The notes beneath the pieces are model-generated. The model searched no databases. It saw nothing but the letters and a program-made list of their open reading frames with translations, and was not told where the DNA came from. The position numbers and the translations under genes are program-made. From Candidatus Melainabacteria bacterium 17Bon1m (GTDB lineage Bacteria; Cyanobacteriota; Vampirovibrionia; Obscuribacterales; Obscuribacteraceae), in contig JAVLKG010000008.1 in NCBI GenBank assembly GCA_032128875.1, positions 32,001 through 96,000 on the forward strand: a stretch of DNA of 64,000 bases, read 5' to 3'. Shown in pieces: positions 32,082 through 47,385 of the stretch (positions are counted from its first letter, which is position 1; each line of letters starts with the position of its first letter).

Positions 32082-32155
32082 TAAAAACAGGTCGCATGCA
32101 ATGCGACCCCACGCTGAGAATTAAAAACAGGTCGCGTGCAACGCGACCCCACGCT
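32082..32155. repeat. Direct repeat of a 34-bp REP-like hairpin unit
   Basis: TAAAAACAGGTCGC(A/G)TGCAA(T/C)GCGACCCCACGCT at 32082-32115 and 32122-32155. Confidence 0.85.
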
Positions 32156-34359
32156 TAATATCGGATTTGCACGTGATGCTCTGGTCGGGTGAGCTGGTCT
32201 TTCAATTGTTCGGCAGCGGCTTTAGTAACGCCGGATTCCTGCATGTCGATAAACTGCAAGTCTCTCATCTGTGACAACGGCACAGTCACGGAATTGTCGA
32301 GCTTGGTGAATCGCAGCTGCAGTTGTGACAAGTTGGGCAAATACTTCGGAAAGAGCGCAAGAGTTTTCGCATCTATCGAACAGCTGTTCAAACTCAAGCT
32401 CTTCAGACGTTGAATCTTACCCAAAAGCGGTATCCACGAGGCATCAACCTGAGAACCATTCAAATTCAAATACTCGAGAGAGGGCATACCGCACAAAGAC
32501 TTGATACCGTCAGTAGTGACACTATTAAATCCAAACTCAAGCGCTATCACATGCTGTAGTCGTCCAATTGCAGCAATTCCAGTTGGACTCAGGCTGCAAT
32601 TAGAAGCATCTACAAACTGCAAAGATGGCAATGATTCAAGATTCTTTATTCCATCACCTCGAAGGCTTTTGCAAGCTCTAAAGCCGAGGCGCTGCAACTG
32701 TTTCATCGACGCAATATCTTTGAAGACATCATCAGTCACCGGCGCGCCGGAGAAAAAGAGCGATCGAAGCTGCAGCCCGGATATGGATTTTAAGCCATCG
32801 TTAGTAATTTCATTGCCCTGAACGGATAGGTTCTTCAAAGAGGTAATTTCCGCAAGATATTTCATGCCTCGATCTGTAAGCCCGGTGCGGTCCAGGTGCA
32901 GCTCTAGCAGTTCGTGCAATGTACGTAAGTTAGATATCCCGGCGTCGGTTATATTTGTAGAGTCCAAGGATAAAAAGTGCAGACTTTTTTGAGTGGGCAA
33001 AATCGCCAGACTCTTGTCCGTAATCTGTGAATTGGATACATCAAGGGCGCTGATACCTAAATCGGTGTTGAAATACTCACTGAAAAACTTATCGTCCATA
33101 CGCTTAGGATCGAGATAGCGCACCATCTTAGTACGCTCCAGCGTCAAGAGTTTATCGAGTCTTGCAGACTCCTCCAACTGCGCAGACGACACGCGACCCA
33201 GCATCGCTTTTCCAATCATATTTGTCAGCATGATCGAACTTCCTGCTACTCCCAGAAGGCTAAAACCGGCAGCAAGTGAAATCAGCACCAGCTGCCGCTG
33301 TTCGCGATTCCACCTCATTTGCCGGGCACCTGTCGCATCCAATTTTTCGGGGCGACCGACCAGCGCTTGCACCTTTGTGAGATCATCGAGCATCAATTTC
33401 ATCGATTGATATCGATCAGCAGGATCTTTCGCGAGAGCTTTAGCCATGAGGTCTTCCAACGGCTGTGGAAACTTCATGTCCGGTCTGACTTCAGAAAGTG
33501 TGCGCGCTGGTTTTGAAATTTGGTCGACAATAACGGAGACCATAGATGAGCCTGAGAAGGGCGGTTTGCCAGTGATCGCTTCAAATAGAACACAGCCCAG
33601 GGCGTAAATGTCGGAGCGTGCATCAAGCTCGCCGCCCTGACATTGCTCTGGGCTCATGTACTGCGGAGTGCCCAACAACTCGCCAGTTTGCGTAACCTTT
33701 GTCGAATCGCTTTCCAATATTTTGGCGATGCCGAAATCAACAATCTTCACTTCCGGAAATGCACAATCGTAATCTGAAACCATGATGTTACTCGGCTTAA
33801 GATCGCGGTGTAGGACATTTCGATCATGAGCATGTTGCAATGCATGGGCAAGTTGAATGGCGATGTTAATCGCAGCCTCCACAGACAGCGGGCCATTTCG
33901 CAATATCTCTGAAAGCGGCTTTCCATCAATGAAATCCATGACCATGTAAGGCTGGCCGTGCTCTGACACACCATAGTCATGCACAGCGATGATACATCGG
34001 TGTGACAGTCCGCTGACCGCCTCCGCTTCTTGCTGAAACCGCCGTGTTATCACGTCCGACATCAAATGGCTGTGCAGCATTTTTATAGCGACCAAGCGTT
34101 TTAATACCGGATTTTTAGCCTTGTAAATCACACCCATGCCGCCGGAGCCAATGAATTCCAGGAATTCATAATTGCCGACCAGCTTGCGTCCCTCACCGAG
34201 CGTGTCGTCGATTATTGTGCCGTCCTTCGGACAGGCAGCAACAGTGAGAGGTACATTCAATCCGCACTTTGGACAGACACGACTGGCAGGTGTTTGTACA
34301 GGAGTCTTCGGCTCATTGCCAGACTGCGTTGAGATGGTGACCGCATCTTCGTCCTGCAC
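32155..34359 (-). CDS. Ser/Thr kinase with zinc ribbon, TM and LRR (paralog 2)
   Basis: Same architecture with intact kinase motifs (HRDLKPSN, DFG, YMSPE). Confidence 0.93.
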   Translation of the reverse strand: MQDEDAVTISTQSGNEPKTPVQTPASRVCPKCGLNVPLTVAACPKDGTIIDDTLGEGRKLVGNYEFLEFIGSGGMGVIYKAKNPVLKRLVAIKMLHSHLMSDVITRRFQQEAEAVSGLSHRCIIAVHDYGVSEHGQPYMVMDFIDGKPLSEILRNGPLSVEAAINIAIQLAHALQHAHDRNVLHRDLKPSNIMVSDYDCAFPEVKIVDFGIAKILESDSTKVTQTGELLGTPQYMSPEQCQGGELDARSDIYALGCVLFEAITGKPPFSGSSMVSVIVDQISKPARTLSEVRPDMKFPQPLEDLMAKALAKDPADRYQSMKLMLDDLTKVQALVGRPEKLDATGARQMRWNREQRQLVLISLAAGFSLLGVAGSSIMLTNMIGKAMLGRVSSAQLEESARLDKLLTLERTKMVRYLDPKRMDDKFFSEYFNTDLGISALDVSNSQITDKSLAILPTQKSLHFLSLDSTNITDAGISNLRTLHELLELHLDRTGLTDRGMKYLAEITSLKNLSVQGNEITNDGLKSISGLQLRSLFFSGAPVTDDVFKDIASMKQLQRLGFRACKSLRGDGIKNLESLPSLQFVDASNCSLSPTGIAAIGRLQHVIALEFGFNSVTTDGIKSLCGMPSLEYLNLNGSQVDASWIPLLGKIQRLKSLSLNSCSIDAKTLALFPKYLPNLSQLQLRFTKLDNSVTVPLSQMRDLQFIDMQESGVTKAAAEQLKDQLTRPEHHVQIRY

Positions 34360-34368
34360 AACCAGCCC

Positions 34369-36660
34369 TCAGAATTTTACTTCAGCGCCATGCAATGCCT
34401 TTTTTAGAGATTCCTGAGAGGGTCTGCCGACCGCGGCGCCCTGGACATCGACGGATTCCAGAGTCTTTAACTTGCGTAATTCCAGAACACCCTTTTCTGT
34501 CACCCGGGTATTGCTCAAATCGAGGTGCTTGAGAGCGGGAAGTTTTGCGGCGATGAGAGCTAATGTTGCATCGTCGATGTCGGAATTTGCCAGCACCAAT
34601 GTGTCCAAAGCCGGCAATTTGACTACTTCTTCCAACCTAGCCGGAGAAAAATTGGTAAAACTCAAGTCGAGTGTTTTCAAATTTGGCAAAGTCTCCAGTG
34701 CTGTAATCGCACCATCCTCGATTTTGCAACCGGACAAGACGAGTTTGCGCAGACTGGCTATTTGTGCGACTTCATCGAGATCTTCTACAGCGATTTCGCT
34801 GTCTTTCAGATCCAGCCATTCCAATTGTTTCGCTGCTGCCAAAGCAAGGAAATTCTTTTCCCCTTTAGGAGAATACTCTCCTATTTCTAAGTGTTGTAGC
34901 TTGGGAAACTTGCTTATTGTTGTTAGTCCCTCAGCGCTAACGCGGGTTCCGGTCAAAAACAAGTCATGCAGGTTTGCGCTCGGAATCGCAGCGATGCCTT
35001 TATCTCCGACGCTTGTGTGCTCTACGGAAAGTTTTTCGAGCGTGGTCATATTGGTGAGGTGCTTGATGCCGGCATCAGTAACAGCGGTTTTGTCGAGGTA
35101 CAAACGCTCAACTTTTGGCATTGTGGCTATGTATGTGAGATCGTTGTCTTTGATTTTCGTATTGTCCAAATGAATCGAGACTACGTTCTTTTGAAGCGAA
35201 ATGAATGGGATGCCAAAGCTGGACACGTCATTGTCGGCAAGTTCCATTTTCGTTATGCCTGTATCCACATCAAAGAATGTGCGAAGCAGCTCATCATCAG
35301 CCTTGCTCATGTTCAAATACTGAACGAGCTTTCTGCGCTCGTTCATTTTGGCAATGGGCAAATTGTTGACCGCTGCCAGCGGATTACTCAAAATCGCCCT
35401 GGTTATGTGGGTTGTCTGAGAATCATGCACAACCTTGATGAATGAAATTGAAGTGACAGCAACTGTGCCAAGGGTGGCAAGTGAGCCAAGCATCAGCAAA
35501 AAGAGATTGCGCTGCTCTTTATTCAAGCGCATGACACGCATTTTGGACCAGGCAGTCGAACTCTGTTGTGCAAGAACTTTGTGCACGTCGATTAGATCAG
35601 TTGTCAGCTCAGACATGGACTGATAGCGGTCGGCCGGGTCTTTGGCGAGCATTTTGGCAATAATGTCTTCCAGGTGCCCAGGGAATAGCATGTCAGGGCG
35701 GGTTTCTTTCAATGTGCGCGGGGCGGTATTCATCTGGTCGACAATAACCGAAACCATCGAATGCCCAGCAAACAACGCTTTTCCTGTCATGGCTTCGAAC
35801 ATCACGCAACCAAGTGAATAGATATCCGAGCGGGCATCCAGGTTGCCCCCGCGGCACTGCTCAGGGCTCATGTACTGTGGCGTTCCGATCAGTTCGCCGG
35901 TTTGAGTCATGCGAGTTTTTTCGGATTCGAGAACTTTGGCAATACCGAAGTCGACTATTTTTACTTCCGGTTCAGCTTTTTCAAGGTTGGTGACCATGAT
36001 ATTGCTGGGCTTCAAATCTCGGTGCAAAACGCCCCTGTCATGCGCGTGCTGAAGCCCTTCAGTGAGCTGAATAATAATCTTGAGCACTGCTTCTATGTTA
36101 AGCGGAGTCGCTTGCAAAACATCCGAAAGCGGCTTGCCTTCTACGAAATCCATGACCATATAGGGCTGACCATGCTCGGACACACCGTAGTCGTGAACAT
36201 GAATAATGTTGCGGTGATCGAGCGAGCTGACGGCCTCCGCTTCTTGCTGAAAGCGCTTGTTGATCGCATCCGAAACAAGATGCCCATGCAACATTTTTAT
36301 CGCTACAAGACGGTTTAAAACCGGGTGACGCGCTTTGTAAATGACGCCCATGCCGCCGGCGCCGATAAACTGGATAAACTCATATTTGCCAACCAGCTGA
36401 ATTCCAGGCTGTCCATGAACGGTAATTGGCGTGCCGTCTTTCGGACAAATGCCCACGGACATCGGCAACTCCAAACCGCAAGAATGGCAAGCGTGAGTAC
36501 CGGGTGGCGGAGTTTGTTGCCCGGCGATTGTGAAGTTTAGGGTCTTAGGATCGTCGATTTCCACTGTACTAATCCAGTACGAAGCTGGAGACTCCTGTGC
36601 CTGTTTTGTACCCAGGCATGCGGCTAATGAGACTGCCTGTGCAGGCGTAATATCAGCCAC
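34369..36660 (-). CDS. Ser/Thr kinase with zinc ribbon, TM and LRR (paralog 3)
   Basis: Same architecture. By comparison with the paralogs the true start may be the GTG at 36564. Confidence 0.92.
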   Translation of the reverse strand: MADITPAQAVSLAACLGTKQAQESPASYWISTVEIDDPKTLNFTIAGQQTPPPGTHACHSCGLELPMSVGICPKDGTPITVHGQPGIQLVGKYEFIQFIGAGGMGVIYKARHPVLNRLVAIKMLHGHLVSDAINKRFQQEAEAVSSLDHRNIIHVHDYGVSEHGQPYMVMDFVEGKPLSDVLQATPLNIEAVLKIIIQLTEGLQHAHDRGVLHRDLKPSNIMVTNLEKAEPEVKIVDFGIAKVLESEKTRMTQTGELIGTPQYMSPEQCRGGNLDARSDIYSLGCVMFEAMTGKALFAGHSMVSVIVDQMNTAPRTLKETRPDMLFPGHLEDIIAKMLAKDPADRYQSMSELTTDLIDVHKVLAQQSSTAWSKMRVMRLNKEQRNLFLLMLGSLATLGTVAVTSISFIKVVHDSQTTHITRAILSNPLAAVNNLPIAKMNERRKLVQYLNMSKADDELLRTFFDVDTGITKMELADNDVSSFGIPFISLQKNVVSIHLDNTKIKDNDLTYIATMPKVERLYLDKTAVTDAGIKHLTNMTTLEKLSVEHTSVGDKGIAAIPSANLHDLFLTGTRVSAEGLTTISKFPKLQHLEIGEYSPKGEKNFLALAAAKQLEWLDLKDSEIAVEDLDEVAQIASLRKLVLSGCKIEDGAITALETLPNLKTLDLSFTNFSPARLEEVVKLPALDTLVLANSDIDDATLALIAAKLPALKHLDLSNTRVTEKGVLELRKLKTLESVDVQGAAVGRPSQESLKKALHGAEVKF

Positions 36661-39822: not shown

Positions 39823-40377
39823 ATGAAAAAACTGATCGAATACCGAGCCTTCCCCTGGGTGGTGGCTCTGGTGGTCGGCGCTGTGATGGGTTTTCTGGTG
39901 GGTCCGCTGGTGACAGCCTTGACTCATCACGCAGCCCTTCCTTTCGCCTGGCAGTGCGTCCTCGGCATCATCGCCGCGGGCGTCACCGGCGGGGTGATCG
40001 AAAATGCGCTCTCTCGCCGTCCGGTCGCGGTCGACCCTGATCGCAAGCCGGGACTGGTCGACAAAGTCTTCGGAGCCGGCCGCGTTTACTACGTGGTCGA
40101 GCCCGACAAGGACGGTCGCATCCAGATCATCGTCAGCGCCAATGGCATCGGCGCCAGGGCTTTCGAAGACAAGCTCGTGCCGATGCTGAAGAAGATCGAG
40201 GGCATGGAATGGGGCAACCCAATCAAGCCCAGCCAGAGCGCGCCGGCAAAGGGGCTGGTCGCTCAACCCGCGCCGAAAGGCGACGGGATCATCGTCGGGA
40301 CCATCCTGGCCGAGGCGAGCCTGGCCAAGACAATCCCGCAAATCGAAGAGTGCCTCGGCTCGGCCGAGCCTCTTTGA
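39823..40377 (+). CDS. Hypothetical 2-TM membrane protein with soluble C-terminal domain
   Basis: GGAG RBS; two N-terminal TM segments. Confidence 0.75.
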   Translation: MKKLIEYRAFPWVVALVVGAVMGFLVGPLVTALTHHAALPFAWQCVLGIIAAGVTGGVIENALSRRPVAVDPDRKPGLVDKVFGAGRVYYVVEPDKDGRIQIIVSANGIGARAFEDKLVPMLKKIEGMEWGNPIKPSQSAPAKGLVAQPAPKGDGIIVGTILAEASLAKTIPQIEECLGSAEPL

Positions 40378-40544
40378 TGCACAACGACTATGCCTGAGCC
40401 GACGCCCGGGCCTCGTGAAGAAGCTTGCCACAAGCCAGCTTCCATCGAGGTTCGGGTCGAGGCGAAGGCGCCAGAGAGAGCGAGAAAAATCTCGTAGGGG
40501 CGCATCGTATGCGCCCTGCCTCTCTCAAACTGGAAAGGCAGCTT

Positions 40545-41096
40545 ATGAAAACACATCTAGCAAACGTTCTGGACCTTGAATTGAGCTGCTATCCCGACGG
40601 AAAGTTTCCCGACGACGAGCGGCAAGAAATCATCGAGGTCGGCTTGACCACGGTCGATCTCCACAAGATGGAGATTGTCGCCGTGCGCAGCATCCCGGTG
40701 ATACCGACGATGTCCTCCATCAGCCCGTTTTGTGCTGAGCTGACCGGATGGACGCAAGCGGCGCTCAACAAGCAAGGTGTGCCCTTCGAAGAAGCGGTTC
40801 GCCGCCTCGTCGAAAAGCACGGTTCCAAAAACCGGCTGTTGGTCACGGATTCCGCTGGTGATCGCAAGTTCTTCGATTGGCAGTGTGCAATGTTCGGCAA
40901 GGCGTCGCCTTTCGGCGACTACGAGCAGAACGTCTCGGTGCTCTTCTCCATCTACACGGAAATCTTCCAGAACGTGTCTTTGGACGACAAGCTGGAAAAA
41001 CTCGGACTCAAGTTCGAGGGACGCCGGCACCGCGCCGACAGCGACTCAATGAACATCGCCCGGCTGCTCATCGAACTGAAGCGCCGCATGCGTTGA
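40545..41096 (+). CDS. DEDDh 3'-5' exonuclease (ERI1/KapD-like)
   Basis: LDLELS, EIIEVG, FCAELTG and FEGRRHRADSD motifs; start ATG 40545 after GAAAGG. Confidence 0.9.
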   Translation: MKTHLANVLDLELSCYPDGKFPDDERQEIIEVGLTTVDLHKMEIVAVRSIPVIPTMSSISPFCAELTGWTQAALNKQGVPFEEAVRRLVEKHGSKNRLLVTDSAGDRKFFDWQCAMFGKASPFGDYEQNVSVLFSIYTEIFQNVSLDDKLEKLGLKFEGRRHRADSDSMNIARLLIELKRRMR

Positions 41097-41149
41097 AAAA
41101 CGCTCTGCGACGCAGCAGCAAACGAGGTCTCTTAATGACCAGTGAAAGA

Positions 41150-41197
41150 ACAGACTGTGCGGCATAAACAACCGCACAGTCTGTCATCTTTCTTTCT
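41150..41197 (+). terminator. Terminator-like hairpin after the exonuclease gene
   Basis: 13-bp perfect stem ACAGACTGTGCGG/CCGCACAGTCTGT followed by a pyrimidine tract. Confidence 0.7.
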
Positions 41198-41913
41198 CGT
41201 CCAGCCCAACTACTGCATATCATAAGGCACCAGATACGCCACCACACAAACAGCTATTTTTTGAAGTCAAAGGTGCGGCTGTACTTCGGATTGCTTTTCG
41301 ACCCAGCCACTGTGACGAACCTTGCGTTTCTACTGCGCATCGAAAGCGGTTGTAGGCGTTTTATTAGAGCTGCCGCCAGCTCGCGAAGGGATTAACAGCC
41401 TCTCACAAACGCGCTAGCCGTTGCGGTGCTGTTTAATGCACAGACCGATTTGGTCGCCGACCCGAGAACCTCACCCAGGCTGCGCTAGTGCTTCACAGCT
41501 TCAAATTTCGACGTACTTTCCCCCCTGCGCTCATTAGCGCAATTTCATTAAAAGCTACCCCAAAAGGAGGGTGGTCAAGAACTGAGAAGTACTACCACCA
41601 CTCATGATCGAGGTGTAGATCTGCTTATTTGGTTTTACTCTGACACTGACTTTTAGTCATACGGCTATTAGAGCTACCTAAGGTTGCTAAATGTCTTACG
41701 TAAGAGTTAGGGTCAAAGCACGTTTTATAAACACTCTTTCATTCCGGAAAAACCCAACCACTCTTCGTTTCAACTTTCATCCAACACCAATTCAGCCCTG
41801 CCAGTTCAGCTCTTTTGCTGTGGCGGGGTTTTCCGTCTCTTGTTGCAGCCCTCACTTAGAGCATTTTGACGCTCAGTTTGGGACCGCAACTACCAGACCT
41901 GAATGAGAACAAC

Positions 41914-42663
41914 ATGGCGAATCTACCCCTGACAGTTCGCTGGTACATGTTCGTGAATGACATCATTCGCGTCTATGCCAGATTGATCCTCAGGCGCCTC
42001 GACAAAATAGACTTCGGAGCTCTGCTCGGTGGACCCGGTTCAGGAAAAGGCACCCTTGGCGTTCGCCTCGGACCTCTCCTGCGACTGATTCTGCTCGGCA
42101 TGGGCGACGTTCTCAGGCGCGAGGATATCCAGAAAGAGTACGGGGACAGACTAGCTGCGATGAGCAAAGGCGGCTTGTTGCCCGACTCCCTGGTTCACGA
42201 AATTCTCGAGCGAGAGCTCACCAAGCCTGCATATGCTCGTGGCGCCATCTTCGATGGAATTCCGCGAACGCTGAGGCAAGCGCTTCTTCTGGAGCGTTCG
42301 CTCGCATGGCGGGGTCTTCGTTTGAACTGGGTGGTGCTGCTCGATATCGATGAAGAAGAGCTCGTGGAGCGACTGACGCATCGACGCACCTGTCCCAACC
42401 CCAATTGCCGCCGCACCTATCACCTCATCAGCAATCGTCCGAAAGTCGAGGGAATCTGCGATGAGTGCAAAACTCCGCTGATTCAGCGCAAGGATGACGT
42501 GCGTGAGGTGATTGTGGAGCGGCTTCGCAAATACCGGGAGGAAATCACTCCTCTCTGTAGCTTCTACAAGGCGCGCGGCGTTTTGTATGAAGTAAAGCCG
42601 GCCAAAGGGAGCACTCCGGAAGAAGTGTTCAACTTGGCCAAATCTGTCCTAACGAGCAACTAG
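41914..42663 (+). CDS. adk: Adenylate kinase family protein with zinc-binding LID and N-terminal extension
   Basis: GGPGSGKGT P-loop, GDVLR, GGLLPD, DGIPRT, CPNPNC...CDEC and QRKDD motifs. Confidence 0.88.
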   Translation: MANLPLTVRWYMFVNDIIRVYARLILRRLDKIDFGALLGGPGSGKGTLGVRLGPLLRLILLGMGDVLRREDIQKEYGDRLAAMSKGGLLPDSLVHEILERELTKPAYARGAIFDGIPRTLRQALLLERSLAWRGLRLNWVVLLDIDEEELVERLTHRRTCPNPNCRRTYHLISNRPKVEGICDECKTPLIQRKDDVREVIVERLRKYREEITPLCSFYKARGVLYEVKPAKGSTPEEVFNLAKSVLTSN

Positions 42664-42673
42664 GAGAAAGACC

Positions 42674-42895
42674 ATGGCTCGCACTTTCCATGTCCTCGCC
42701 GATGACGGCAGCATCGACAAGCGTGCAACCCGCGCTCGCCGCCTGCACGGACCCGGTGCCAAGCGCGTTTCCACGCGTCGCAGCACCATCTGGTCCAACA
42801 TCTCCGGCCTCGGTCCCGACGGCAAGGTGCGTCGCGCCAACGGCAGCATCGACCACGCGGCAACGCGTGAAGTCGAGCGCGGCTGGCACGACTAA
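42674..42895 (+). CDS. DGSIDK-repeat protein A (73 aa, 2 repeats)
   Basis: AGGAGA RBS overlapping the adk stop; FHVLADDGSIDKRATRARRLHG and NGSIDHAATRE. Confidence 0.85.
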   Translation: MARTFHVLADDGSIDKRATRARRLHGPGAKRVSTRRSTIWSNISGLGPDGKVRRANGSIDHAATREVERGWHD

Positions 42896-43190
42896 GCAGT
42901 GACTGGCGTCGAAGCGAAGGAGAAGGTTGCCCACCCGATCCCCGCTTCGGCGCGCAGCCTGCGGTTTGCTCAAAAATTTCGACGGTGAGTGCAGATACCT
43001 GGTTTGCACTTGCCCGGAAGACGCTGACTCTTGCGATGCCGGCAACGGCTCCACGCAGGTGGTCGGCGTATGTGGAGTACCGGTTCGCATGTTGCGTTCC
43101 GGGTTGGTTACAAAACCGACTAAGGGAGCCGCTTACAGGAAGCAGCTTACCTGGTCATGACAGCCCACTTGGGCGAAATGGAGAACTGTT
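42896..43190 (+). ncRNA. Candidate structured leader RNA, copy 1
   Basis: Collinear homology with 43596-43985; conserved loops on stems of different sequence. Confidence 0.6.
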
Positions 43191-43595
43191 ATGACGAACA
43201 TCAACACCACCAATGGCAGCAACGACCTCATCCCCGGCACCAACCTGACCTGGGCTGACGCCGCCGCGATGCACAAGGACTACCTGCGCGACCAGCGTTG
43301 CAAGGGTACCCGCCGCAGCCGCCGCACCCGCACGAACCGTTCGAGCAAGAACGACGGGTTCTACGTGCTGGCGGAGGACGGCAGCATCGACAAGCAGGCC
43401 ACCCGCGAGCGCCGCCTCTTCGGACGCGACGACCGTCAGGTGACCGTGCACCGTGCGCCGCAGGTCGACACGCTGACTTCCGATTGGGACGGGTCGTACT
43501 CGTTCCGCCCGGACGGCAGCATCGACAAGGTCGCCACCCGCGAGCGTCGCCTCTTCGGTGAGCCGGAGAGCTACCTCGCGAGCCTGCTGAACTAA
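43191..43595 (+). CDS. DGSIDK-repeat protein B (134 aa, 2 repeats)
   Basis: GGAG RBS; FYVLAEDGSIDKQATRERRLFG and DWDGSYSFRPDGSIDKVATRERRLFGEP. Confidence 0.88.
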   Translation: MTNINTTNGSNDLIPGTNLTWADAAAMHKDYLRDQRCKGTRRSRRTRTNRSSKNDGFYVLAEDGSIDKQATRERRLFGRDDRQVTVHRAPQVDTLTSDWDGSYSFRPDGSIDKVATRERRLFGEPESYLASLLN

Positions 43596-43985
43596 GCAAG
43601 TGAAGTTAGCACCGGAGCGTTGGAAGGGCTGCCCGCCTGACCGCGCTCCGGTGCGCTTCTTGCTGTTCGCCCCAGAATTCACGGCAGAGCATTGACGCGC
43701 ATCAGCGCTCGGCTTTGCCCAAAGAGTTTCGAAGCACAAGCAGCTACCTGAGCTGTGCGTGCCCGGAAACGCTGATAGCGGAGATGCCTGCAGCTCTTCG
43801 CTCCAGCGTTTGCAGCGTCACCGGGTGGTGGCGTTGCAAAACCATGACGTGGATGTTTCTGCGTTGTGGAAAGCCGGTTCACTTGTTGTGAGCCGGTTTA
43901 TTTGGTGAACCCGACTAAGGGAGACGCACTCAGGATGCGCCTTACCTGGTCATGACAGCCCACTTGGGCACATGGAGAAACTGTT
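43596..43985 (+). ncRNA. Candidate structured leader RNA, copy 2
   Basis: Same ordered motifs as copy 1 with two insertions; 29-nt identical block at 43941-43969. Confidence 0.6.
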
Positions 43986-44495
43986 ATGACGAACATCGAA
44001 AACACCACTGGCAACAGCAGCATCAGCGGCGCCGAGCACAAGCACTGGCTCCGTGAACTGCGCATCGATCGCAGCCTCGGTCTCGACCGCGGTGTGCGCA
44101 ACGGCAGCAAGAAGCGTCGGAACAACGAGGCGACTCGTCCGTTCCACGTCCTGGCCGCCGACGGCAGCATCGACAAGCGCGCCACCCGCGAACGCCGCCT
44201 CTTCGGACCGGACGCCACCCCCGTGGTCACCTCCGGCTCGGACGAGAACATCGGCGCCGACTGGGATGGCCGCTACGTCCTGAAGGACGACGGCTCCATC
44301 GACAAGCAGGCCACGCGCGAGCGTCGGCTGTTCGGTGAGCCCGAAGACCTGTACGGCCGTAACGCTGCCGACTACTTCTTCGGCGACGAAGAGGGCGATG
44401 CCGACAGCAGCTTCCACGTCATCGACGAGGACGGCTGCATCGACAAGCAGGCCACGCGCGAGCGCCGGCTGTTCGGTTCCAGCCTCTGGAACTGA
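43986..44495 (+). CDS. DGSIDK-repeat protein C (169 aa, 3 repeats)
   Basis: GGAG RBS; three DG(S/C)IDKxATRERRLFG units. Confidence 0.88.
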   Translation: MTNIENTTGNSSISGAEHKHWLRELRIDRSLGLDRGVRNGSKKRRNNEATRPFHVLAADGSIDKRATRERRLFGPDATPVVTSGSDENIGADWDGRYVLKDDGSIDKQATRERRLFGEPEDLYGRNAADYFFGDEEGDADSSFHVIDEDGCIDKQATRERRLFGSSLWN

Positions 44496-44571
44496 TACCT
44501 GAAGGGCGTCGGCACTCGCGGACTTGATGCGCAAACGCATTAAGCTCTGCGAGCACCGGCGCTGGTAGCCT

Positions 44572-44608
44572 TGAAAGGCGAGGGTCCTTCCCCTCGTCTT
44601 TCATTTTT
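44572..44608 (+). terminator. Rho-independent terminator ending the repeat-protein cluster
   Basis: TGAAAGGCGAGGG/CCCTCGTCTTTCA stem followed by TTTTT. Confidence 0.8.
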
Positions 44609-44752
44609 AGGGCATTACCTACTGTATGCCATCGTAATTTGAGCAAGAAAAAGAAGCAGGCGACCTGTCCGAGCATTTTCAGCTCGGGACAAATCGCCCA
44701 CTTCAAGACCATTCTCGCTAGTCGTTGTTACGACTAACGGGAATGCAAGGGA

Positions 44753-45334
44753 TTACTTGCGCTTCTGCGTGCGAGGCTTGTCGTCGAAACACGCAGTGCA
44801 CACCTTGGTGCTCGGCTTCAGCCCGCCCAGGATCTTCGCCTCATCTTGCACTCGGCAGAGAATCTGAATCTCTTCGAGCTTGAGGCTGTCACCCTCCAGC
44901 TGCGCGAAGACGTGGGCGCGACAGGCAAGCGCGCGAACGAGTTCGCCGATGTCACCGCTGAACTGCTCGCCCGTGAGCATCCGTGCGATCTTGCGGCATT
45001 CCTGTTTTGCGGCTTGCTTGAGCGCAAGAGAAAAAATACCGCAGGCCACCCGAATATCTCGCCAGGAAGATTTCGGGAAGCCGGCGAAGATCAGCTCGGC
45101 ACGCGCGGCGACGGTATTCTCCGGAGGCGACACACGTTCGTCTGCGCCCGCCGGGAGCATGTTGATCGCGTCATACAACGGGCCCAGACCGGCACGCGCA
45201 TTGAGCACGACGAAAAGATCGATCTTGTCGGGGTCGAACTCGTGTTCGTGAAAAACGCTCAGACAGGGAATCACCTTGATTTCGACGGACGAGCGAAGAG
45301 CAGCGATTGAAGCGGGTTTCTGATTGTCAGTCAT
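44753..45334 (-). CDS. Hypothetical protein
   Basis: 193 aa ORF with AGGAGA RBS. Confidence 0.7.
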   Translation of the reverse strand: MTDNQKPASIAALRSSVEIKVIPCLSVFHEHEFDPDKIDLFVVLNARAGLGPLYDAINMLPAGADERVSPPENTVAARAELIFAGFPKSSWRDIRVACGIFSLALKQAAKQECRKIARMLTGEQFSGDIGELVRALACRAHVFAQLEGDSLKLEEIQILCRVQDEAKILGGLKPSTKVCTACFDDKPRTQKRK

Positions 45335-45792
45335 GACTTTCTCCTATTCTCGTGACTCGTTTCACAGCCGGAACTGCGGTTGGGAAGCTAGAAAAAGCGT
45401 TGCAAATGGAGCTTGCGGGTGCTGCGAAAAAATTCCGGTCGGTGAAAACGAGATGTGGCAAAACCCTATGAAATCGGGCTGGGAAAGCGCAATCGAACCA
45501 AAGTATGATTGCCGATCTCGCGCTAAGTCGACCGCGATAAATGACTGGTTGCTCATGCACTGGCGAACGAACTTCAATGCTCAAAGACCGCACTGCGCCA
45601 GCCCCGGTTCTCGACAAGAGCTAACTGCAACCCTTGAAGACCAATACTTTGGGACTATGATGCAAGCTGCGCCATAATACCCAGGTATGATTTCGCCGCG
45701 CGAAGCTTTTCGCAAGTTAGCGCCAGCTCTTGACGGGCATGCAAAACCCGTCTTGCCTCGATTTTCTATTAGAATGGCTTTGTGTGGAAGGA

Positions 45793-47385
45793 ATGGACGC
45801 CGTGCGCGAACATCAGATCGTCATCAGCCTCAAACCTGAGCAGTTTCAGGAAGTGCAAAAACAAGCTCGGGCAGCTGGAGCTCAGTCTGTTGGCGCCTTC
45901 GTGCGGCAAAATCTGCTCAACTTCCTGGGATTGGAAGAATCGATCAACGCCGGTAAAGCCTCTCAAATGTCTCCCTCTGTCCAAGCTGACCCGGACTGGC
46001 GGTTTATCGCCGGAGAATTGCGCCGCCTGCACCGCGAATTGAAAGTCTTGTCCAGTGAGGCAACTGTATCGAACACCCTGGTGACCGACATAGCCGGTTC
46101 GAACAGTTCGATCAGTGGTCCTACCACTGCGACCGGAGGTCCTCTTCTGGCTTCCACAGTGGCTTTGAGCGAACCTTACAGAGAGCCGGTGCCGGAATAC
46201 AGCCAGCCGGCACAGCATGAAAACTTCCTTACAGATGGCGCGCCGATAGCTGTCGATGACTATTCGGACAATCTCGACGATTCGCTCATTCTTCCCCCAG
46301 CGCATGGTATCACCGGCGGCGGAACGACTCCTTTCTTCCAGACTCCCACGATGCCCAGTCGATCGCCTTTCGGCATGCCGATGTCTTCAGGACTTCCACT
46401 TTCATCGCCTTTCTCGCAGCATACGTTCATGCCGAATATCTCTCCTCTGCCGAGCGATTTGGGCATAGCGGCTCAAGCCCCGGCAAAGCAAGAGTTCACC
46501 GTCGACGAAGGAGATCCGGTCGAAACGACGAAGATTGAGGCAAAACCACAGCAGCCGGCGGAAACGCAACCAATAGCGCAACCCACAGCAACTGAGACCG
46601 CTGCAGCCACGCCCCAAACATCAGCCCAGAGCGCCTCTCAGCTAATAACTCAACCGACATCGCAAGCTGCGTTTCAAACCGCATCTCAAGACCCTCAAGT
46701 TACACAAGCTGCGCAACCCGTTTCACAACCAGACCAACGACCTGCAGCAGCAGCCCAGCTTCCTCCTGCAAATGCTCCCCAGCAACCTCCGGCAGTTCAG
46801 CAACCTGTTGCCCCACCGCAAGCAGCAGCACCTGTACAACCGGAAGCGCCGACTATCACACCTGTGCAAACTCGTTCACAGATTGCTTCTCAAACTCCAG
46901 CTGAGCAGCCAGGAGCATTCGCGCCACAGAAAGACGACATGGAAGTTCTTGCAGACAGAGCGTTTGCAATTTCACCAAGACTTGGCGCAATTGAGCCGGA
47001 AGTTACACTGCAACCGGCACAAAGCCGAAGCTTCGCCGACACTCTTGAAGAATTGCTCGACGCCGGCCTAATCAACCAGGTTTTGTCTCAGACCGAAGTT
47101 GAAGAGGACAATCCTTACGCCGGAGAAGTTGAAGCACCTCCGGAGGATGACCTGGTTCAGGTAATCGTTCAGGAAGTCGACGTACCCTCGCCCGACGCCA
47201 CAGATAGCAAAAACGCCGAAGAGTCCGATAACACGAGCAATAGCGAGCCTGAGGACAGTCAGAATGATCCGCCTGCCGCGATTCAACATGACCCTCCGCC
47301 ACCGCCTCGCCCAATTGGCGGCGCCGATCAATCTGGCGAAGACGAGCCACCCAAGCCACCTCCGCGCCGCAGAAAGTTGATGTAA
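45793..47385 (+). CDS. Pro/Gln/Ala-rich, largely disordered protein with N-terminal ribbon-helix-helix-like segment
   Basis: QIVISLKPEQFQEVQKQARAAGAQSVGAFVR followed by a long low-complexity region. Confidence 0.75.
   Translation: MDAVREHQIVISLKPEQFQEVQKQARAAGAQSVGAFVRQNLLNFLGLEESINAGKASQMSPSVQADPDWRFIAGELRRLHRELKVLSSEATVSNTLVTDIAGSNSSISGPTTATGGPLLASTVALSEPYREPVPEYSQPAQHENFLTDGAPIAVDDYSDNLDDSLILPPAHGITGGGTTPFFQTPTMPSRSPFGMPMSSGLPLSSPFSQHTFMPNISPLPSDLGIAAQAPAKQEFTVDEGDPVETTKIEAKPQQPAETQPIAQPTATETAAATPQTSAQSASQLITQPTSQAAFQTASQDPQVTQAAQPVSQPDQRPAAAAQLPPANAPQQPPAVQQPVAPPQAAAPVQPEAPTITPVQTRSQIASQTPAEQPGAFAPQKDDMEVLADRAFAISPRLGAIEPEVTLQPAQSRSFADTLEELLDAGLINQVLSQTEVEEDNPYAGEVEAPPEDDLVQVIVQEVDVPSPDATDSKNAEESDNTSNSEPEDSQNDPPAAIQHDPPPPPRPIGGADQSGEDEPPKPPPRRRKLM

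Follow-up and report, generated by a model that had tools for sequence, protein, structure and literature searches.

What is the role of three small tandem genes that are built from copies of one short repeated unit, and how is their translation controlled? The genes in question, g1, g2 and g3, lie in a stretch of 64,000 nucleotides (nt) from the genome of Candidatus Melainabacteria bacterium 17Bon1m (assembly GCA_032128875.1, contig JAVLKG010000008.1, positions 32,001 to 96,000), which we call the window and in which all positions below are counted from its first letter. The organism belongs to the Obscuribacterales, a group of non-photosynthetic, uncultured cyanobacteria in which most lineage-specific genes are without an assigned role. 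A preliminary description of the window had singled out the repeat; it had overlooked the upstream gene adk2, which encodes a paralog of adenylate kinase, and the match between the RNA leaders of g2 and g3 and the 3' end of this gene.

In short, we found that g1, g2 and g3 are protein-coding genes of a new family, that g2 and g3 are preceded by leaders with covarying RNA helices, and that a model of these leaders matches the 3' end of adk2. The reading that we prefer, which is tentative and which we hold at somewhat less than an even chance, combines these observations: the genes would encode multivalent peptide-motif proteins that are tied to the kinase Adk2 and are under translational gating.

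The three genes and their repeated unit

All three genes are open reading frames (ORFs) on the + strand and were found exactly as described, in tandem and with two, two and three copies of the unit, whose consensus is (F/Y)xVLxxDGSIDK(R/Q)ATRERRLFG. The first, g1 (42674..42895), encodes a protein of 73 amino acids (aa) with an isoelectric point (pI) of 11.5; in the translation, its first unit (FHVLADDGSIDKRATRARRLHG) covers 42686..42751 and its second, degenerate unit (KVRRANGSIDHAATREVERGWH, with the motif copy NGSIDHAATREVERGWH) covers 42824..42889. The protein of g2 (43191..43595; 134 aa, pI 9.5) comprises a helix unit at the N-terminus, a linker rich in Arg and two hairpin-helix units, which the translation places at 43359..43424 and 43494..43559. 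In g3 (43986..44495; 169 aa, pI 5.45) an N-terminal helix is followed by three hairpin-helix units (44142..44207, 44271..44336 and 44412..44477, from the translation and an AlphaFold2 model) and by a C-terminus that ends in ...SSLWN. The seven copies counted in the preliminary description correspond to the seven units just listed; the count is a slight underestimate, since both g2 and g3 have, as their N-terminal helix, a degenerate copy of a second type of unit that we see in distant relatives (W..A..MAKEV.RENRLFG). The sequence DWDG, said to precede some of the copies, stands before the second unit of g2 and the second unit of g3. An AGGAG or GGAG lies 6-9 nt ahead of each ATG, which bears out the good ribosome-binding sites that had been noted, and the reported absence of signal peptides and transmembrane segments is in line with the lack of a hydrophobic stretch, as judged by eye and without a predictor.

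Do these ORFs really encode proteins? In public sources the gene calls read 'hypothetical protein' or are without a name. Compared with their orthologues in the related locus L005, g1, g2 and g3 have ratios of non-synonymous to synonymous substitution rates (dN/dS) of 0.22, 0.70 and 0.45. Moreover, the conserved Ser of the unit is encoded by TCC in one unit (g3 unit 2) and by AGC in the others, which is a synonymous exchange, and the motif is retained in genera in which the DNA has diverged. For these three reasons we regard g1, g2 and g3 as real protein-coding genes. Their codons end strongly in C, as had been pointed out before: the fraction of C at the third position is 0.59-0.64, whereas 13 genes of the neighbourhood have 0.24-0.45 and the tuf, groEL and rplB genes of this genome have 0.38-0.42. 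The G+C content of the three genes is 66-67%, that of the window 53%.

Next, we asked where else the unit occurs. In the genome of the organism itself (7.55 Mb), a six-frame search found the family solely at g1, g2 and g3. A word-indexed search of 5.8 billion proteins gave 23 relatives, and an exhaustive search with a profile picked up 44 proteins (E <= 1e-3) among 1.84 billion representatives. Two of the 44 deserve a comment. One (P0061) is a low-complexity false positive; the other (P0048) is a planctomycete dockerin protein of 402 aa that has three copies of the hairpin half of the unit (FVVLAEDGTIDREATRE) and no RRLFG end, so that this half exists alone elsewhere. The same protein is of the planctomycete-type extracellular kind, with a Planc_extracel signal. 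Among 185,579 species genomes (one per species) there are four loci, all of them titled Melainabacteria or Obscuribacterales. A match to the family is present in 28 of 107 Obscuribacterales genomes, and all but that of the organism itself (G000) are counted in the bacterial family f1 (27 of 103). Apart from the planctomycete half-motif, the protein family is restricted to the Obscuribacteraceae/Obscuribacterales. The family genes often stand in tandem arrays, and two genomes (G042 and G078) have arrays of five.

Across 23 sequences, 13 positions of the unit are invariant or almost so (D, G, I, D, K, A, T, R, E, R, R, F and G); in other genera the end of the motif varies (RIFG, RLYG, RLHG). Distant members have a Trp-containing helix, TGWTxxDAxEMAxxxRExRIFG, in place of the hairpin, so that the element common to the family is the Arg-rich helix ending in RExR(L/I)FG. 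The near-invariance of the 13 positions makes a generic protective polymer less likely than a protein with a specific partner or with a defined mini-fold.

We were not able to assign the genes to any described family. At the curated cut-offs Pfam gave no family (the best scores were 16.4 bits for DUF6009, with a cut-off of 28.6, and 12.6 bits for MVL, with a cut-off of 25), and scans of g1-g3 with NCBIfam, PHROGs and PADLOC gave no match; the distant members and two further types of small protein, B and C, which are introduced below, have no family match either. In this respect the repeat is as unrecognised as it had appeared at first. The likeness to hydantoinase B/oxoprolinase proteins that had been suggested has to be dropped, since Pfam shows no such match even at E <= 10. 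A literature search of limited extent found no description of the protein family or of the leaders; supplementary tables could hold an annotation. The protein family of g1-g3 is new and belongs to no described family tested.

For the structure we have a model of g3, made by AlphaFold2 with an alignment of 23 rows. It has no global fold (mean predicted local distance difference test score, pLDDT, 64.5; predicted template modelling score, pTM, 0.23). It does have an N-terminal helix (residues 15-30), bridges 56/62, 99/105 and 146/152, and helices 64-73, 107-116 and 154-163, with a pLDDT of ~80 in the units and below 50 in the linkers. The model thus suggests beads on a string: a short beta-hairpin and a 10-residue Arg-rich helix per unit, with disordered linkers in between. 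A beta-hairpin followed by an Arg-rich helix is also what the preliminary description had proposed for the motif. A Foldseek comparison of the model with the PDB gave nothing at E <= 0.001 (best E 5.1), which says little because the model lacks a global fold, and the ESM Atlas gave no usable match.

A sequence-profile search of the PDB had one single match, the dephospho-CoA kinase CoaE (E = 0.24), where the profile DGsiDKrAtRERRlFGePe aligns with ADGTLQRRALRERIFANPEE (E. coli residues ~55-84). We rejected a relation to CoaE: an hhalign comparison with 30 Obscuribacterales CoaE sequences was not significant (P = 0.0097, probability 4%, 13 columns). Unlike CoaE, g1-g3 have no P-loop/Walker A or other part of that enzyme, and the model of g3 has no globular core. 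The likeness of the unit to CoaE seems to be one of motif only.

Tandem genes this small, whose proteins have a conserved N-terminus and conserved segments in several copies, could also encode precursors of ribosomally synthesised and post-translationally modified peptides (RiPPs) or of bacteriocin-like peptides, with several core copies per gene. This is extremely improbable in our view. Pfam scans of 14 neighbouring ORFs found no family of a modifying enzyme, protease or transporter; what is conserved are the repeats and not flanking recognition sequences; and, to our knowledge, no pattern of Cys, Ser or Thr that would be typical of known RiPP classes is visible in g1-g3.

A further possibility is that the proteins are exported and mimic a short linear motif of eukaryotes, acting in a prey or host cell by means of RRLFG(E/P), of Arg runs that resemble nuclear localisation signals and of a polar N-terminus rich in Ser, Thr and Asn. 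A preprint (10.1101/2024.09.16.613291) quotes the cyclin A2 recruiting motif of p107 as GSAKRRLFGE. Its hexapeptide RRLFGE is identical to one in g2 and g3, and RRLFGP is also present in g3; in the literature, several of the matches listed for RRLFG concern the biology of cyclins and cyclin-dependent kinases, and none of them is bacterial. Near-identical DNA occurs in runs from three studies that bear the names of organisms, and in biofilms of drinking water or plankton; we draw no conclusion on a habitat from this. An identity of six residues is weak, however, and the motif drifts in other genera to the RIFG, RLYG and RLHG endings mentioned above. The p107 motif is a cyclin-docking RxL motif, whereas the context here is that of the bacterial cytoplasm, with no signal peptide visible by eye and with a tight coupling to a paralog of a housekeeping-type kinase that fits an intracellular role. 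As for delivery systems, FHIPEP (the FlhA-type gate), VipB (the sheath of the type VI secretion system) and CagE/TrbE/VirB4 each have 0 matches in the genome, which is 93% complete. We judge a role as an exported mimic to be very improbable.

Structured leaders of g2 and g3

How is the translation of these genes controlled? The spacers ahead of g2 and g3 can be aligned over ~250 nt and hold a near-invariant core that they have in common with the leaders of other genomes. A covariance model built from the leaders, R1, matches the core of leader 2 (43075..43205, 135.9 bits) and that of leader 3 (43869..44000, 134.6 bits), each with the helices P2, P3 and P4; upstream of the core a hairpin search found P0, with an ACCUG loop, at 42984..43014 and 43740..43756, respectively. 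All of these elements are on the + strand. The helix P4 of leader 2 (43155-43194) pairs UCAUGACAG with CUGUUAUGA, so that the start codon of g2 (43191-43193) would be hidden in the stem and the GGAG of the Shine-Dalgarno (SD) sequence would lie in an internal loop. In leader 3, P4 (43950-43989) pairs the start codon of g3 (43986-43988). In both leaders the start codon is paired in the minimum free energy (MFE) fold and in the centroid fold, with z = -2.28 for leader 2 and z = -4.69 for leader 3; for the latter, 0 of 200 shuffles were as stable.

To quantify the support for the helices we analysed how paired positions change together. RNAalifold on nine leaders predicted 40 pairs, 13 of them with compensatory changes. 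In 21 distinct leaders, 93.3% of the cells are paired compared with 85.1% in shuffles, none of 500 shuffles attaining the former value, and double changes occur in 14 of 33 pairs; partners that are slid along the alignment pair in 31-39%. The covariation lies in P2 (6 of 9 pairs) and P3 (8 of 12 pairs), while the outer helix of P4 (8 bp) and its inner GCCC/GGGC hairpin never vary on both sides. The proposal that a structured RNA accompanies the repeat proteins was therefore right as far as P2 and P3 are concerned, and this RNA has no relative in Rfam 15, which gave 0 matches at E <= 1 over positions 40000-47000 of the window.

The P0 hairpin, with a CCUG loop and covarying stems, is found in 18 of 19 leaders, 51-143 nt upstream, when 1.2 would be expected from shuffles. 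This CCUG and the CAGG that is invariant in the loop of P3 are complementary, which is compatible with a loop-loop contact between the two hairpins. The four bases of this putative kissing interaction are invariant; a fifth pairs in the 11 leaders with U before CAGG and in 0 of the 7 with A (by eye). We also considered a pseudoknot between the CAGG of the P3 loop and a CCUG on the 3' side of P3. It is less likely than an extension of P3, since the 3' strand differs in genus g33 and still pairs with the base of P3. A conserved upstream ORF within the leader was rejected as well: its frame relative to the AUG shifts from leader to leader by indels of 1 nt, and the leader of g3 has no ORF of at least 40 aa that ends in P4. 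As a separate observation, a relative with 99% identity (L004 5968-6510, equivalent to G088) differs by 1 nt in the spacer, which brings an AUG in the 5' arm of P4 into frame with g3. A form of g3 with 180 aa and the start MTAHTGKWRTV is possible there; the frame is not kept in other leaders.

In the genome of the organism, R1 has exactly two full matches, namely the leaders of g2 and g3. It matches 12 of 104 genomes of the bacterial family, mostly of the same genus (8 of 12). A scan of metagenome contigs with the P4 pattern found 15 loci, of which 8 are true leaders, all of them ahead of small genes of this type of locus. In other genera (L054, L056 and L059) the leaders consist of several hairpins, are built differently and leave the AUG unpaired, so that the family of leaders is broader and more diverse than what R1 captures. 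These three leaders share an element composed of CCGAC and a hairpin; a GCCC/GGGC hairpin is also seen in G017.

Are these leaders of a known kind? Leaders controlled by CsrA have a GGA in a hairpin loop plus a GGA at the SD sequence, and here the P3 loop has CAGGA with the GGAG of the SD sequence ~50 nt downstream. On the other hand, csrA was not found: PF02599 has 0 matches in the genome, given its completeness of 93%, and was detected in three control genomes. We therefore rejected control by CsrA. The complex architecture and the invariant unpaired stretches would be compatible with a riboswitch; the leader precedes small orphan genes only.

A hidden start codon also bears on another explanation of the proteins themselves, which is that they are stress protectants of the hydrophilin or dehydrin type. 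They would shield macromolecules or membranes with no single specific partner and be made in bursts when the leader melts, for instance upon a shift in temperature or water stress. The predicted beads on a string with long, disordered and highly charged linkers would suit such a role, and so would the tandem arrays of up to five paralogues, the very strong codon bias and the structured 5' leader. We nevertheless consider it unlikely. The motif is conserved almost residue by residue in the 23 sequences, which points to specific recognition or a mini-fold, and P4 comprises ~9 bp plus an inner GC hairpin, whereas the stems of typical thermosensors are weaker.

The gene adk2, the proposed origin of the leaders, and the genomic context

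The gene upstream of g1, adk2 (41914..42663, +), encodes an adenylate kinase paralog with an N-terminal extension of ~35 aa (Pfam ADK, 1.3e-29, and ADK_lid). We take its start to be the ATG common to the orthologues; the list of ORFs begins at a TTG (41866). In an alignment of the kinases (A5) the P-loop, the conserved Arg residues and the Cys4 lid are kept. A second, housekeeping adk is located elsewhere in the same genome.

The start of g1 follows the adk2 stop by 10 nt and its SD sequence overlaps this stop, which is why we suggest that g1 would be translated by coupling to adk2. The junction of the adk2 3' end and g1 (42561..42688, +) is the putative parent of the leaders: R1 matches it with 34.8 bits, and it has hairpins like P2 and P3. 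It lacks P4, so that the AUG of g1 is unpaired in the fold. The adk2 3' ends of four other loci give 30-38 bits with R1. The homology between adk2 and the leaders rests on this covariance model and on an alignment by eye.

The element has another position in a genome of genus g33, G081. There, the adk2 reading frame contains the whole element including P4 as its final ~96 nt, and the adk2 stop comes after the inner hairpin, 14 nt ahead of the paired AUG of the small gene that follows. A ribosome that finishes adk2 must consequently open P4, and the arrangement points to translational coupling. Together, the match of R1 to the adk2 3' end and the in-frame element of G081 lead us to infer a tandem duplication in which the tail of the kinase gene was kept as a non-coding leader; the array probably grew by duplication of a segment made of the adk2 3' end and a small gene.

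How general is the link to adk2? In 7 of 11 loci that we compared, adk2 is conserved next to the family. In 10 of the 28 positive genomes, which represent five genera, no more than 2.5 kb separate the two; in G067 the stop and start overlap. We see adk2 in 24 of the 28 family-positive genomes and in ~26 of 79 others, where the 230-bit cut is a soft one and related genomes are not independent. A prediction of the complex of Adk2 (alignment A5) with g3 (alignment A2) had a score of 0.00, which speaks neither for nor against binding.

Two other small proteins take the same leader or the coupled position behind adk2. Type B is an orphan of 103-107 aa in the genus of the organism (L010, L033, L100 and L111) and ends in ...AGRLHGEDVV.TR.RR. 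Type C is acidic, has ~120-160 aa and a GLD..LFGKA sequence, and occurs in genera g10, g18, g19, g33 and g36, coupled in g18 and g33; type B/C loci also include L038, L039, L099 and L105 (genus g33) as well as L054, L056, L057 and L059. A homology of type C to the g1-g3 family was rejected as not significant (P 0.26). In genera g10, g18, g19 and g36 basic motif proteins and the acidic type C are found at the same location, and the two could work as a pair. In genera g32 and g15, the arrays (L055 10972-11856, -, and L058 3882-4773, +) are located just downstream of a gene for a stand-alone RapZ C-terminal domain (PF22740, 3.7e-24), which in turn is preceded by a conserved orphan of 148-156 aa.

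The co-occurrence of the leader and the family raises the question of whether the proteins bind their own leaders. As autoregulators, their Arg-rich helices would bind the loops of P3 (CAGGA) or P0 (CCUG) and stabilise or open P4 in a feedback, and the tandem units would recognise more than one hairpin, in the manner of arrayed beta-beta-alpha fingers without zinc. The predicted hairpin and Arg-rich helix of the units, the basic character of g1 and g2, the several hairpins with invariant loops and the restriction of the leader to these genes in the genome all fit, and no CsrA is present that would explain the GGA loops otherwise. However, the same invariant leader stands ahead of three types of protein that are unrelated or barely related, among them an acidic one without significant similarity, and in G081 the leader is present while no motif protein was detected (E <= 1e-3). 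Furthermore, g3 is net acidic, family members in other genera have different leaders, and the helix, with no more than 3-4 Arg, also has an invariant Glu and a pair of Leu and Phe that resembles a mini-core or a contact with another protein. On balance, the evidence speaks mildly against simple autoregulation by binding of the own leader, which we hold to be rather unlikely.

We also looked at the transcription unit. A strong hairpin of the intrinsic-terminator type (13 bp and a T-run; 44572..44613, +) is the probable end of a unit that comprises adk2, g1, g2 and g3, and a scan for sigma-70-like promoters found none inside the cluster. After g1 there is a conserved hairpin with a stem of 11 bp and no U-run (42905..42954, +), the stems of which differ and yet stay complementary in L004, L005 and L006; it is possibly a 3' end or a processing structure. 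The conserved hairpin after g2 (43610..43653, +) has a weak terminator-like match, listed at 43642-43655. Contigs from metatranscriptomes of relatives, obtained in two studies, cover the locus in part. A contig of 2,039 nt extends from 41743 to 44507 over adk2, g1, a leader and a g3-like gene and has one repeat unit fewer. This is a weak hint of an operon transcript, as such contigs prove neither a single transcript nor RNA. The probable source sample has recorded RNA-Seq runs (X2-X4), in which the locus is in contigs of 7 kb (7-180 kb for X2 and X3) and the longest records have 148-182 kb; from these lengths the runs look like DNA libraries and are silent on transcription. In X17 and X18 parts of the locus are without cover, from which we conclude nothing.

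Upstream of adk2, ~770 nt (41097-41865) are without a convincing ORF, and no Rfam match was found in the part scanned. The metatranscriptome contigs of relatives begin at 41697 and 41743; the region could be a long 5' untranslated region or a further regulatory region. The remaining neighbours are ordinary chromosomal genes (Ser/Thr kinase and leucine-rich repeat proteins, a Mur ligase, a patatin, an RNase T, a decarboxylase and an AAA/R3H protein), and the synteny around the locus is partly common to other genera. Two tandem proteins of ~735-765 aa (32155-36660, -) combine a Ser/Thr protein kinase domain with leucine-rich repeats. A 551-aa protein (45730-47385) has no Pfam match and is a conserved neighbour in four loci. 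By eye, its N-terminus (HQIVISLK..EQF.E.QK.AR.AG..S..AFVRQ) resembles a ribbon-helix-helix DNA-binding domain, and it is followed by a long tail rich in Pro, Gln and Glu and by a basic C-terminus. We considered that a palindrome of the leader, GTCATGAC, may be a DNA-level operator.

A proposed explanation and its relation to known systems

Based on these observations, the reading that we prefer can be put as follows. The ancestral element would have been a coupling device, in which the ribosome that ends adk2 melts P4 and frees the downstream start codon. The array may then have grown by tandem duplication, with the copied kinase sequence kept as a non-coding leader. As nothing is translated upstream of them, P4 ahead of g2 and g3 would act as a gate that is off by default, with temperature, a trans-acting factor or a ligand as candidate triggers. 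The extreme bias towards C-ending codons suggests that the proteins are made in quantity when the gate is open. The proteins themselves would act inside the cell and be multivalent, carrying a short peptide that recognises one candidate partner common to them, and this partner would be functionally linked to Adk2, that is, to the status of nucleotides or energy. The recurrence of the coupling to adk2 suggests a link of adenylate status either with the partner or with the timing.

Several points weigh against this explanation. The dN/dS of g2, 0.70, is fairly high, and the codon bias may be due in part to amino-acid composition and to gene conversion between the repeats. Being invariant, P4 and its inner hairpin are without support from covariation, and the invariance could reflect a site at the level of the DNA (the palindrome GTCATGAC) or a protein-binding site rather than a helix. 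In other genera, the leaders of L054, L056 and L059 are built differently and have an unpaired AUG. As to the origin of the leaders, BLASTN and TBLASTN comparisons of adk2 with the two spacers gave nothing significant. The association with adk2 has exceptions, too: in 4 of the 28 family-positive genomes (genera g15, g19 and g32) the distance between the family genes and adk2, on one contig, is 89-272 kb, and in 14 of the 28 the family is on another contig or no adk2 was found, so that a physical partnership with Adk2 is not obligatory. Besides, synteny within a single bacterial family may be no more than shared inheritance.

In a more far-reaching version, RNA and protein would form one module. 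A switch of several hairpins, made from the last ~100 nt of adk2 and with a possible contact between the loops of P0 and P3, would have its loops read by the zinc-free hairpin-helix 'fingers', or these would read a common partner, for example Adk2; the copy number of the units and that of the genes would set a feedback on the extent to which the array is translated upon a change of adenylate status, and both the peptide and the RNA would be new classes. We consider this version quite unlikely.

Why does the locus matter? The unit would be a new recognition element, and a compact one: it is small and sharply conserved, has a hairpin and a helix of the form R-E-x-R-L-F-G, and is predicted to be autonomous. 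A regulatory RNA was apparently born here from coding sequence, through duplication of the adk2 3' end with its coupling helix. A divergent adenylate kinase that is translationally tied to small disordered proteins hints at an unexplored control by nucleotide or energy status; according to Soo et al. (2014), the Obscuribacterales were first noticed for their polyphosphate metabolism. If, on the other hand, the proteins of g1-g3 are generic stress protectants, the interest is modest.

How do the proteins compare with known systems? Dehydrins, late embryogenesis abundant (LEA) proteins and hydrophilins have repeated short segments that form helices, disordered hydrophilic linkers and multigene arrays, and in this they are like g1-g3. 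There is no sequence relation, and the segment here is stricter, rich in Arg and tied to a kinase gene and a leader. Peptides with an arginine-rich motif bind the loops of RNA hairpins, as in the phage N-boxB pair or in the lentiviral Tat/Rev type. The short Arg-rich helix beside conserved hairpins with invariant loops is reminiscent of them, whereas the helix of g1-g3, which we know from composition and predicted helicity, has 3-4 Arg, an invariant Glu and Leu-Phe-Gly, follows a beta-hairpin and comes in repeated units.

As regards the leaders, translational coupling by an RNA structure that hides a downstream start is a classical mechanism of operons and RNA phages. The likeness is close: in G081 the 5' arm of P4 is in the adk2 frame, and in the window P4 pairs the AUGs of g2 and g3. 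In contrast to the classical case, the element of the window lies in an untranslated spacer of ~300-390 nt, where no upstream ribosome would open P4, and it consists of a duplicated piece of coding sequence with the extra covarying hairpins P0, P2 and P3. While the leader belongs to no described RNA family tested, the hiding of a start codon and coupling are a known kind of mechanism; what appears to be unusual is the origin of the leader from a duplicated coding tail, together with its extra conserved hairpins.

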